Shown here: positions 12,561-13,742 of the stretch, one piece after another
How the letters are laid out: each line of letters begins with the position of its first letter
How positions within the stretch are numbered: position 1 is the first letter of the stretch
IMG/VR virus record: IMGVR_UViG_2744054962_000001
Direction: 5' to 3' (one strand)
Source of the DNA: a virus
Lineage: Duplodnaviria > Heunggongvirae > Uroviricota > Caudoviricetes
Length of the DNA: 64,000 nucleotides
Translations under genes and position numbers: made by a program
The notes under the pieces: model-generated
What the model was told of the DNA's origin: nothing
The model's database searches: none
The model's input: the letters and a program-made list of their open reading frames with translations, nothing else

Positions 12561-12796
12561 AAACATATCGATAAGTATTTACTTACTTATCCTTTGTGTA
12601 TAAGATGACTTTGTTTTCGTTGAGACGCGACTGTTTGAACTTAAATACAAGTGCAAACGAAGAAGTCTATCTGGCAGTAGCCTAATAAGCCAAACACCAG
12701 CGAGGTCAGTTTCCAGCCTCGTTACCGAAATGGGACACACTGAGCGAGTGTGATTGCAGAACGCAGGAGGGAACATTCATGTTCCCTCCGATGAAG

Positions 12797-12880
12797 TAAC
12801 AGAATGGGCGGTTGGTATATTTTCAACTCCATATGACTCCCGGATTCTTAGCCACTGACCGCCCATCCTGTTACGTCATT
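12797..12880. ncRNA. Candidate structured RNA element with long terminal stem
   Basis: AACAGAATGGGCGGT ... ACCGCCCATCCTGTT (15-bp arms, one wobble) enclosing about 50 nt. Confidence 0.25.
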
Positions 12881-12951
12881 TTGTTCAATTATGTCGTTTA
12901 TACTGGGTTAAAAAGCGGCGACGTAGCCCGGCTGGTATGGTTAGCCAGCAC

Positions 12952-13075
12952 ACAACGTTGAGGCCATTACATTTTTATCAATTCTAAGGTTCTATTCACA
13001 GAGATACCGGCGAGCGTTGATATGTAACATGTTGGGCAAACATTCAATCGGAGTAGTGGCCTCAACGTTGTGAAG
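12952..13075. ncRNA. Candidate structured RNA element with long terminal stem
   Basis: CACAACGTTGAGGCCA ... TGGCCTCAACGTTGTG perfect 16-bp arms enclosing about 90 nt, upstream of tRNA cluster. Confidence 0.25.
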
Positions 13076-13338
13076 ACGGGATTGTTGTGTAGGTTTAACC
13101 ACTGTTGCCATTGGTGCCTGTTTTCACAACAAATGATTCCATACATCACATTGTATAAATTACAAAGTAGGTGCTGTCCTCAGAAACATCATCTACTTAA
13201 AGATTTTGCCTTCTACTATTGAGCGAAGTCGAAAGCGTCTGGCACTAACGAAAAGTGCAAGTAGCGGTGCGTTTCATGGCAGAAACTAAACCGTCGCGAT
13301 TGGCACTGTTGAGTAATAAATACTGGCAGTGCTGAATT

Positions 13339-13413
13339 GATGGTGTAGCTCAGCGGTAGAGCAGTTGGCTGTTAACCAACTGGTCGGTGGTTCGAATCCA
13401 CCCACCATCGCCA
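13339..13413 (+). tRNA. tRNA-Asn (anticodon GTT), CCA encoded
   Basis: Manual fold: acceptor GATGGTG/CACCATC, D stem GCTC/GAGC, anticodon loop CTGTTAA, T arm GGTGG TTCGAAT CCACC, 3-prime GCCA. Confidence 0.8.
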
Positions 13414-13415
13414 AT

Positions 13416-13491
13416 GCCGGTTTAGCTCAGTTGGTAGAGCACCTGCCTTGTAAGCAGGATGTCAGCGGTTCGAATCCGTTAACCGGCACCA
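13416..13491 (+). tRNA. tRNA-Thr (anticodon TGT), CCA encoded
   Basis: Acceptor GCCGGTT/AACCGGC, D stem GCTC/GAGC, anticodon stem CCTGC/GCAGG with loop CTTGTAA, T loop TTCGAAT. Confidence 0.8.
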
Positions 13492-13499
13492 ACACAATT

Positions 13500-13586
13500 G
13501 GAGAGTAGAGAGCATGGTGCTCAAGCGGTCTTGAAAGCCGTCCCATTGCGCAAGCGATGATGGTTCGATTCCATTACTCTCCGCCA
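13500..13586 (+). tRNA. Class II tRNA, probably tRNA-Ser (anticodon TGA), CCA encoded; D arm atypical
   Basis: Acceptor GGAGAGT/ACTCTCC perfect, anticodon loop CTTGAAA, long variable arm, T loop TTCGATT; D-arm spacing non-canonical so isotype is provisional. Confidence 0.55.
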
Positions 13587-13667
13587 GACACAGCGTTGAG
13601 CGGTTTGGCCTATTAATCAACTCGATTAAGACTCCGCTAACATAAACCAGACCGCTCAACGCTGTGA
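13587..13667. ncRNA. Long-stem hairpin element immediately after tRNA cluster
   Basis: ACACAGCGTTGAGCGGT ... ACCGCTCAACGCTGTG 16-bp arms enclosing about 46 nt. Confidence 0.3.
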
Positions 13668-13742
13668 TAGACAATTACGGCAGACGTTCTTAACCATAGC
13701 TTGCTAACATCATAGCAACACTTTTTTTCAGCGCAAAATTCA

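Follow-up and report, generated by a model that had tools for sequence, protein, structure and literature searches.

The window analysed here is a stretch of 64,000 nucleotides (nt) of a tailed phage (IMG/VR virus record IMGVR_UViG_2744054962_000001), and the subject of this work is a group of three long-stem hairpins, HP1, HP2 and HP3, which lie around its transfer RNA (tRNA) genes. Over positions 12500–13800, the window is 99.1% identical to Escherichia phage Cyrano, the plasmid of E. coli LF82, and like Cyrano it is an SSU5-like phage-plasmid. Searches for related sequence matched 1307 plasmid records. Of 5426 complete E. coli genomes, 774 contain such sequence; of the 818 E. coli matches, 808 lie at this same locus on homologous plasmids. 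The hairpins occupy a stretch of 1.25 kb without a credible gene, which extends from the end of a coding sequence (CDS) for 96 amino acids (aa) at 12560 to the start of a Gp49-family CDS at 13808, both on the plus (+) strand. The open reading frames (ORFs) in this stretch are all short and none has Pfam support. A protein-coding reading was dismissed on the ground that homologues differ in length by amounts that are not multiples of three (87–96 nt in the case of HP1). The whole stretch looks like a single rightward non-coding operon.

At the left end of this putative operon, the operator-like palindrome GATAAGTATTTACTTACTTATC (12570–12591) is followed by the −10-like TATAAG (12599–12604), both read from the + strand sequence. 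They are kept in relatives (L131) and sit just upstream of the conserved 5′ region of an RNA, GUUUUCGUUG. The segment 12570–12604 looks like a repressor operator laid over a promoter, as at Pban of phage P1. Next come an RNA that resembles the tag-coding part of transfer-messenger RNA (tmRNA), HP1, HP2 and a fourth hairpin, all described below, and then three tRNA genes on the + strand found by both ARAGORN and Rfam: tRNA-Asn(GUU) at 13339–13413, tRNA-Thr(UGU) at 13416–13491 and tRNA-Ser(UGA) at 13500–13586. The latter two are separated by the 8-nt spacer ACACAATT (13492–13499, + strand). HP3 follows, and the stretch closes with an evident intrinsic terminator on the + strand, AAAGGGGC-UUCG-GCCCCUUUUUU (13742–13764, with GGGGC-UUCG-GCCCC-U6 at 13745–13764), which was read from the sequence, is kept in relatives (L131) and ends 44 nt ahead of the CDS at 13808. 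The terminator scan did not list it; our guess is that the leading T's were counted into the stem. In Cyrano, the 70-aa ‘hypothetical protein’ CYRAN_40 is annotated on the minus strand (13462–13674), antisense to tRNA-Thr, tRNA-Ser and HP3, and is almost certainly a spurious CDS.

Geometry and conservation of the hairpins

The three inverted repeats had been noticed in a sequence-only reading of the window, which gave them arms of 15–16 nt. All three were recovered in the same places with longer arms, 20–25 nt being complementary. In HP1 (12790–12880, + strand) the arms 12791–12812 and 12858–12879 are 22 nt long, 91% complementary and 45 nt apart; with G–U pairs they reach 12790–12816 and 12854–12880, giving a stem of ~25 bp, interrupted by two mismatches, around a loop of ~37 nt that is rich in C, poor in G and contains CCCGG. 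HP2 (12951–13072, + strand) has an unbroken 20-bp stem, CACAACGUUGAGGCCAUUAC / GUAGUGGCCUCAACGUUGUG, formed by arms of 20 nt (12951–12970 and 13053–13072, 95% complementary) around an interior of 82 nt. The arms of HP3 (13589–13666, + strand), 13589–13613 and 13642–13666, are 25 nt long, 88% complementary and 28 nt apart; its stem is ~20 bp and begins 2 nt past the CCA of tRNA-Ser. Overall, stems of 20–27 bp enclose loops of 28–82 nt. That reading did not extend to the fourth hairpin, which lies inside the range 12760–13670 that it covered, to the copy-variable family common to P1 and lambdoid phages, or to the tag-like RNA that accompanies it.

The fourth hairpin (13067–13130, + strand) is formed by the arms GUUGUGAAGACGGG (13067–13080) and CCUGUUUUCACAAC (13117–13130) in a reverse-motif orientation, GUUGUG...CACAAC. 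Its first arm and the 3′ arm of HP2 have GUUGUG in common and the two helices compete for these 6 nt. Both of its non-Watson-Crick pairs are G.U on the + strand, and the variants found in relatives still pair. Directly 5′ of HP1 there is also a small hairpin, GGAGGGAACAT-TC-ATGTTCCCTCC (12766–12789, + strand), with fully complementary (100%) arms of 11 nt; in relatives its place is taken by other sequence and a hairpin is still formed.

Folded as + strand RNA, HP1, HP2 and HP3 reach −36.5, −47.8 and −40.1 kcal/mol, respectively, with z-scores of −6.0, −6.2 and −9.6 against dinucleotide shuffles; none of 200 shuffles folds as well. In the whole window, seven inverted repeats with arms of at least 18 nt within 160 nt were found. 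HP3 ranks first and HP2 second, and these two are the only long-loop repeats, the arms of the other five being 5–7 nt apart or overlapping. The absence of HP1 from this result is due solely to the shortness of its exact runs, 9 nt at most. The end motif CACARCGYTGAG occurs four times in the window (1.2 expected by chance), always within HP2 or HP3, and the terminal 12 nt common to these two hairpins, CACA(A/G)CGTTGAG ... CTCAACG(T/C)TGTG, occur nowhere else in it.

Homologous loci for comparison were taken from E. coli and E. albertii plasmids (L002–L008), from P1, P7 and D6 (L009–L011), from plasmids of Enterobacter, Citrobacter, Salmonella Typhi (pHCM2), Yersinia pestis (pMT1), Klebsiella and Cronobacter (L012–L019), from 120 IMG/VR contigs (L020–L139), and from a Felixounavirus (L144) and HK620 (L145). 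These gave 36 distinct sequences for HP1 (100 loci), 29 for HP2 (89 loci) and 25 for HP3 (77 loci); 24, 15 and 14 distinct homologues, respectively, were aligned. Comparative alignment, one of the checks proposed with the sequence-only reading, bore out its inference of selection on the stems: the stem cells of the alignments are paired in 98.8% (HP1), 98.9% (HP2) and 99.2% (HP3) of cases, and changes on both sides of a pair were observed for 8 of 24 pairs in HP1, 4 of 19 in HP2 and 4 of 19 in HP3. As a control, the 3′ partner was slid by 1–3 columns, which left 23–53% of the cells paired and 0–4 pairs with both sides changed.

The exceptions to Watson-Crick pairing are informative about the strand. 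On the + strand G.U accounts for 107 stem cells in 18 columns, against 5 cells in 5 columns for A.C (which is G.U on the minus strand), with 9 more A.C cells at one HP1 position. A covariance model, R1, was built from HP3 orthologues alone and run over the window with filters off. It prefers the + strand, on which the tRNAs and the neighbouring genes also lie, at every site scored: 90.4 versus 51.5 bits at HP3, 29.8 versus 15 bits at HP2 and 23.1 versus 13.7 bits at HP1. The large excess of G.U over A.C and the higher + strand scores point to selection on a single-stranded + strand molecule, and given the co-orientation with the tRNAs, RNA is the simplest reading of it. Sequence comparison thus gives good support to the view that selection maintains the hairpins as structures of the tRNA strand, RNA being the simplest form, and the proposal of selection at the RNA level stands on both the compensatory changes and the wobble excess. 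The related claim that all mismatches are G–U-compatible fails for the window copies, where one A.G and one A.C mismatch occur in HP1 and two C.A mismatches in HP3; it holds statistically across the homologues.

Distribution, placement and loops of the modules

Besides HP3, the R1 model detects HP2 (E 2e-5) and HP1 (E 1e-3), while the best unrelated site in the window has 14.8 bits (E 0.16), and it also matches extra modules, not present in the window, in P1, P7, D6 and other plasmids. A model built from HP3 alone that finds HP2, HP1 and these extra modules indicates one family, and by this sequence evidence the hairpins are modules of a single family common to SSU5-like, P1-like and lambdoid phages. 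The copy number varies. In plasmids that are 97–99% identical to the window (L002–L007), the site of the spacer 13492–13499 between tRNA-Thr and tRNA-Ser holds 217–364 nt with one to three extra hairpin modules, two of the type CACAAC...GUUGUG and a third with the reversed motif GUUGUGGUGG ... CCACCACAAC. Among near-identical plasmids, the number of Thr–Ser modules ranges from 0 to 3, a tRNA-Tyr gene is optional between tRNA-Asn and tRNA-Thr, and the junctions of the module variation fall in short CACAAC-type repeats.

In P1, P7 and D6, modules of the same type stand before and after tRNA-Asn and tRNA-Thr in the leader of the C1-controlled ban operon, and the position of HP1 corresponds to the P1/D6 module GGCA(C/T)AACAGG(T/C)AAGGGCG ... 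CCUGUU(G/A)CG. Modules were also found in contigs of 46–48 kb with other tRNA sets (Ser-GCU, Thr, Arg-UCU, Met/Ile-CAU), in the late-operon leader of HK620, a phage without tRNA genes, and in Klebsiella siphoviruses. They start 0–2 nt past a tRNA CCA (in HP3, ...CGCCA-GA-CACAGCG) or directly past the tag-like RNA, and can end 4–5 nt ahead of the next tRNA. The modules adjoin the ends of functional RNAs.

Some observations on individual relatives are recorded here. In P1 (L011, NC_005856; 1629–2198), the minus-strand CDSs plp (‘putative lipoprotein’) and upl overlie + strand modules, one of which carries a T-arm; plp and upl may be mis-annotated ORFs. In HK620 (L145, 2221–2316), a reverse-motif module ends in a hairpin and then CACCACA-G-CCA, which resembles an acceptor strand with discriminator and CCA and can pair with an upstream UGUGGUG; this CCA is not kept in other phages. 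The Felixounavirus VpaE1 (L144, 1780–2560) has repeated spacer hairpins of its own in the tRNA cluster, CAGAAGACC(G/A)UU ... AACGGUCUGG, whose arms resemble those of HP3 with the strands swapped.

The interiors of the hairpins are more than spacers. In the HP3 loop, every distinct sequence forms a small inner hairpin of lineage-specific sequence, followed by AAGACUCCGC (13628–13637), which is invariant in all 25 distinct HP3 sequences. The HP1 loop is unstructured, with a C content of 0.32 and a G content of 0.13, and its CCCGG is conserved. Within HP2, two smaller hairpins are formed, and the motifs (U)CACAGAG, UGGG and AAUCGG are conserved. These loop motifs are kept while the stems and the inner hairpin of HP3 change in sequence. 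No antisense targets of the conserved loop motifs were found above chance within the window. Another feature of the family is a canonical T-arm placed right before the 3′ strand of the long stem, which was observed in a few paralogues; a T-loop motif is present in 2 of 100 distinct family hairpins, and the scan of the window found it only in the three tRNAs and in none of HP1–HP3.

The hairpins were compared with known classes of elements. Rfam 15, searched with E up to 10 over the region and nine related loci, gave nothing on the hairpins except meaningless microRNA models, and ARAGORN found no tRNA or tmRNA at the hairpins of any locus, the window yielding its three tRNAs only; the tmRNA call in L139 overlaps tRNA-Met and was taken as spurious. 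The covariance-model scan proposed earlier as a check therefore returned no known RNA family for them. The view that the hairpins are too long-looped for simple terminators was sustained: the loops are 28–82 nt, the terminator scan listed none of HP1–HP3 and the hairpins are not followed by a conserved U-tract, the U-rich UUUUGUU downstream of HP1 being replaced by UUUC or UUCC in relatives. The suggestion that they may be degenerate tRNA-like elements did not hold for the three window copies, which are touched by neither ARAGORN nor the Rfam tRNA-clan and YrlA models and lack T-loop motifs; for the wider family it finds an echo in the few paralogous modules with a true T-arm. The other two suggestions of that reading, stable small RNAs and substrates for processing of the tRNA precursor, are plausible. 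YrlA and other Y RNAs are like the hairpins in a long stem formed from two ends, a structured effector loop and a frequent association with phages or tRNAs. Nevertheless, the matches of the YrlA model RF02553 (24 bits, gathering threshold 69) overlap only the real tRNA genes, and the hairpins do not have the tRNA-like T and D domain of YrlA, which speaks against this class. A protelomerase site of the N15 telRL type was rejected as well, since the arms are 28–130 nt apart with non-palindromic sequence between them. No description of the hairpin elements or of the tag-like RNA was found in the literature searched. The hairpins are an unannotated family, absent from Rfam and from the genome annotations inspected.

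The tag-like RNA upstream of HP1

In E. coli the SsrA tag of tmRNA is encoded by ten codons, starts with GCA and ends with UAA UAA, and the stop codons lie in the loop of helix 5. The RNA domain at 12612–12760 (+ strand) has this arrangement. Its frame (12653–12688) reads GCA AAC GAA GAA GTC TAT CTG GCA GTA GCC TAA TAA, that is ANEEVYLAVA and two stops, and a UGGC/GCCA helix (12672–12675 / 12689–12692) places the stop codons in its loop; hairpin a (12699–12723) and hairpin b (12736–12752) follow. Three Rfam tmRNA models give weak partial hits on the tag-coding part only, with 11–25 bits against gathering thresholds of 47–84.

The frame is conserved in more than 140 loci, and the third-position changes are synonymous (TAT/TAC, GCA/GCC/GCT, GCC/GCT/GCG); the final five codons were preset in the pattern that fetched most of these loci, so that non-synonymous variants in these codons would have been missed. 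The variants include ANEDTYLAVA, ANDNQYLAVA, ANEEMYLAVA and ANDNVFLAVA, with ANDDLMMVAA in P1. A consensus fold of 14 diverse copies shows covariation and consists of the stop-codon helix, a covarying hairpin and a second hairpin. By eye, the loop of the covarying hairpin can pair with downstream GGGA, GGAG or CGAC, which would make a pseudoknot.

The mRNA-like domain of a tmRNA is therefore recognisable, with its GCA resume codon, a short hydrophobic-ended frame of ten codons, AN(D/E)xxYLAVA (ANDENYALAA in E. coli), stop codons in a helix-5-like loop and a pseudoknot-like fold downstream. Unlike tmRNA, the RNA measures only ~150–180 nt, scores low with Rfam and has no tRNA-like domain, acceptor stem or CCA end in any locus by ARAGORN, T-loop scan and Rfam. 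A full tmRNA, with a G3:U70 acceptor, T-arm and CCA, was excluded accordingly.

Depending on the query, 317 to 938 phage records contain the element, among them P1, SSU5-like plasmids, Felixounaviruses, HK620, Klebsiella siphoviruses and N4-like phages. The Felixounavirus copy lies inside the tRNA cluster and has its own promoter, TTGACA-17-TATAGT, at a matching distance. In the species-representative genome collection, the tag pattern was found in two records only, from Buttiauxella and Kluyvera, and in no bacterial tmRNA in its exact form. Upstream of tRNA-Asn in the window, 13235–13260 repeats parts of the tag region 12642–12679 directly (TAAATACAAGTGCAA / TAACGAAAAGTGCAA and TCTGGCAGTA / TCTGGCACTA), which suggests that a portion of the tag RNA is present there a second time in degenerate form. 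The tag RNA itself might act in, or against, trans-translation.

Proposed role in processing and protection, and rival explanations

The explanation that we favour, tentatively and at a little below an even chance, is that the hairpins are structural RNA modules of an untranslated + strand operon of ~1.15 kb, serving its processing and protection and possibly the binding of a partner through their loops. E. coli ribonuclease (RNase) III needs about two helical turns of double-stranded RNA (dsRNA) and processes ribosomal RNA (rRNA) and the transcripts of T7 or lambda at such stems; stems of two turns also block 3′ exonucleases and Rho loading. The length needed, at least 20 bp of near-continuous dsRNA, is present in HP2 with 20 continuous pairs, in HP3 with 20 pairs before its C.A mismatches and in HP1 with ~25 pairs and two mismatches. 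A transcript of the operon would carry, from the operator-like palindrome and −10 onward, the tag-like RNA, HP1, HP2 with the fourth hairpin, the Asn, Thr and Ser tRNAs, HP3 and the terminator, and the stems of at least 20 bp (two turns) would act as punctuation and protection signals of this polycistronic precursor. RNase III would cut at the stems and RNase P at the 5′ end of each tRNA, which would free the tRNAs and the tag-like RNA from one another. The stems would block 3′-to-5′ exonucleases and Rho loading, and the hairpins freed by cleavage may persist as stable small RNAs. At tRNA-Ser, a 20-bp helix that starts 2 nt past the CCA leaves little single-stranded room for RNase E, so 3′ maturation seems to require cleavage in or at the HP3 helix. 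The conserved C-rich loop motifs, CCCGG in HP1 and AAGACUCCGC in HP3, suggest that the released hairpins could also bind a protein or RNA partner.

Two known systems are comparable in part. The nearest precedent is the pair of species 1 and 2 RNAs of T4 (rnaC and rnaD), annotated as stable RNAs and co-transcribed with tRNAs. Like HP3, they are small structured RNAs located on the tRNA strand directly 3′ of a tRNA cluster, and their 5′ and 3′ ends pair into a closing stem. The hairpins agree with the T4 RNAs in strand and in lying within or behind a phage tRNA cluster, but no homology to rnaC or rnaD is apparent: the closing stems of the T4 RNAs are short, species 1 (rnaC) has a T-arm beside its 3′ strand that HP1–HP3 lack, the T4 RNAs do not form a multi-copy modular family with shared end motifs, and no sequence similarity was seen by eye, no formal comparison having been made. 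The RNase III stems of the rRNA spacer, the T7 early R sites and lambda sib resemble the hairpins in having at least 20 bp of near-perfect dsRNA formed from distant segments of an untranslated polycistronic transcript and in flanking or adjoining stable RNAs. They differ in that rRNA stems enclose the mature RNA, while the hairpins enclose a partly conserved loop of 28–130 nt, and in that RNase III sites do not have conserved end and loop sequences, which the hairpins have.

Several points weigh against the favoured explanation. The literature searched yielded no transcript, cleavage or half-life data for the hairpins, and the promoter is only inferred, as a consensus promoter scan made no call at 12570–12604. 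For the window copies of HP1 and HP3, the minus strand gives a slightly more stable fold. The collecting patterns were anchored on the arm ends, so that the outermost pairs could not vary, and the pattern for HP3 required AGACTCCGC, which builds the invariance of AAGACUCCGC partly in; moreover, the aligned homologues are related to each other, and the cell counts are not independent events. Among near-identical plasmids, the window itself is without modules between tRNA-Thr and tRNA-Ser, which means that at least those copies are dispensable for tRNA production. Finally, a processing signal alone needs neither invariant loop motifs nor the conserved ends CACAAC/GUUGUG; these point to sequence-specific recognition, which is outside a processing model.

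The hairpins might instead be precursors of trans-acting regulatory RNAs, sponges or mimics, a proposal that we consider doubtful. In it, the CA-rich 5′ arms and linkers with CACAACA would mimic targets of the small RNA (sRNA) GcvB, as AgvB does, the GU-rich 3′ arms would resemble the GcvB seed, or the C-rich loops (UCCC/CUCC) would pair with Shine-Dalgarno sequences. That tRNA spacers can serve as sRNA sponges, as 3′ETS-leuZ does, counts for it. The prophage-encoded anti-sRNA AgvB uses CACAACA, the consensus of GcvB R1 targets (PMC4104026), and AgvB and 3′ETS-leuZ are likewise phage-encoded or tRNA-operon noncoding RNAs with a CACAACA-type motif. In addition, relatives have CAACACAACA, a perfect 10-nt complement of GcvB, right after tRNA-Thr, the 3′ arm CTTACCGTTGTGATG of a module agrees with CTTACGGTTGTGATG of gcvB in 14 of 15 nt, and the loops, which are C-rich and G-poor in HP1 and HP3, have invariant motifs. 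However, the 14/15 match has an E value of 3.3, no better than chance hits of equal score, and homology to GcvB, or a sponge recognisable by sequence, was rejected for that reason. The CA-rich arm is locked in a 20-bp duplex, CACAAC is absent from HP3 (CACAGCG, CACATCG, CATAGCG) and HP1 (GUAACAG), the loop motifs have no complementary target within the window, and no terminator or U-tail comes right after any hairpin. AgvB, by contrast, has 51–60 nt, a single-stranded 5′ seed and a Rho-independent terminator; the single-stranded CACAACA seed followed by a terminator hairpin, by which an AgvB-type anti-sRNA is recognised, is not found in hairpins where the motif is either paired or missing. Unlikely, too, is a tRNA mimicry, in which RNase P and RNase Z, instead of RNase III, would act on the hairpins as punctuation elements or as degenerate remnants of tRNA-like genes, the long stem being an over-long acceptor stem. 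P1 c4 RNA is a known RNase P substrate, and T4 species 1 RNA has the same plan. The paralogue T-arms described above lie directly 5′ of the long-stem 3′ strand in P1 (L011, 1661–1746; GGGTTCGAATCCC) and in L139 (GGCGGTTCGACTCCGC); in L025, the T-arm GGTGGTTCGACTCCAC adjoins CACCACAAC, the 3′ strand of a short helix with the upstream GTTGTGGTG; GACUCCGC, the motif of the HP3 loop, is identical to the 3′ half of a T-arm of this type, and the HK620 module end, CACCACA-G-CCA, also fits. Set against this are the rarity of the T-loop motif, which none of the three window copies has, the absence of any score from tRNA models (E up to 10) and ARAGORN, and the absence of CCA after the stems.

Selection could also act on DNA, the hairpins being recombination or mobility modules that shuffle tRNA genes and RNA modules between phages. 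Promoter-early stem-loop (PeSL) cassettes of T4-type phages and integron attC sites are comparable in that repeated stem-loops mark module boundaries in variable regions and copy number and cargo differ between close relatives, as do the module number (0–3) and tRNA-Tyr in the 97–99% identical plasmids. Junctions within repeated CACAAC motifs, the same modules in unrelated backbones (P1, SSU5-like, HK620, Klebsiella siphoviruses) and end motifs vaguely like the attC cores RYYYAAC / GTTRRRY agree with this. Nevertheless, it is very unlikely, as a structure that serves on both DNA strands would not favour G.T over A.C on one of them by 107 to 5, and the invariant loop motifs are left unexplained. 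A miniature inverted-repeat transposable element (MITE), a repetitive extragenic palindrome (REP) or an enterobacterial repetitive intergenic consensus (ERIC) was excluded, as the window holds no dispersed copies and nearly all E. coli matches are the same plasmid locus; hairpin copies diverge together with their flanks, and no target-site duplications were seen, though no systematic search was made. Against attC, ACACAAC and GTTGTGA each break the core at a symmetric position, the only integrase nearby has no integron-integrase (IntI) family hit, and the modules of relatives stand in tandem without ORFs between them. Unlike PeSL, the modules have no promoter inside, and the strand-asymmetric wobble sets them apart from both systems. 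Recombination at short repeats is more likely a side effect of the repeats than the reason for their existence. It is harder still to see the hairpins as arms of one large tmRNA-like ribonucleoprotein around the tag frame, in place of the pseudoknot ring or the long P2 helix, and we regard this as highly unlikely. It is true that even in HK620, a phage without tRNA genes, modules lie on either side of the tag-like RNA, that in SSU5-like and P1-like loci the tag domain is always succeeded by HP1 or the equivalent P1 module, and that the tag domain itself has the stop-codon loop and pseudoknot-like fold noted above. However, a tRNA-like domain, acceptor stem or CCA end is missing from every locus, modules also occur far from the tag, after tRNAs, the Felixounavirus tag RNA has no adjacent modules, and module number varies freely.

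Returning to the structural modules of the favoured explanation, they might belong to something larger, although we hold this to be rather doubtful: an undescribed, widespread phage cassette of noncoding RNA with a tag-template core, AN(D/E)xxYLAVA*, derived from tmRNA and without a tRNA-like domain. The long-stem modules would be its dedicated processing, stabilising or partner RNAs, the cassette would act in lytic growth to hijack, retarget or block host trans-translation, and the hairpin RNAs would be trans-acting via their loop motifs. With the same reservation, its range would be P1, SSU5-like plasmids (S. Typhi pHCM2, Y. pestis pMT1), HK620-type lambdoid phages, Felixounaviruses and Klebsiella siphoviruses. 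Family members occur in phages that are among the best studied, as in the ban operon leader of P1, and in clinically common phage-plasmids (774 of 5426 E. coli genomes, pHCM2, pMT1). Should the hairpins prove to be processing and stability signals, they would account for the expression of phage tRNAs and other small RNAs out of long untranslated operons; should they act in trans, they would be a new class of phage regulatory RNA. Their regular companion, a tag-template RNA that looks like a tmRNA reduced to its coding part, would allow a direct test of whether phages interfere with ribosome rescue.

A few minor observations concern the surroundings of the modules in other genomes. In P7, D6 and P1, just past the final module, Rfam gives near-threshold hits to the sRNA STnc100 (33–43 bits, gathering threshold 47) at 2301–2416 in L009, 2317–2437 in L010 and 2237–2356 in L011, for which the window has no counterpart. 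In the Felixounavirus VpaE1 (L144, 1868–3603), ARAGORN finds four tRNAs, two Met, one Asn and one Ser, that are missing from the record annotation. In Y. pestis pMT1 (L016, 1500–2900), the tag-like RNA, HP1 and HP2 are kept without tRNAs, and the F1 capsule locus starts right after HP2, with caf1R at 1990–2895.

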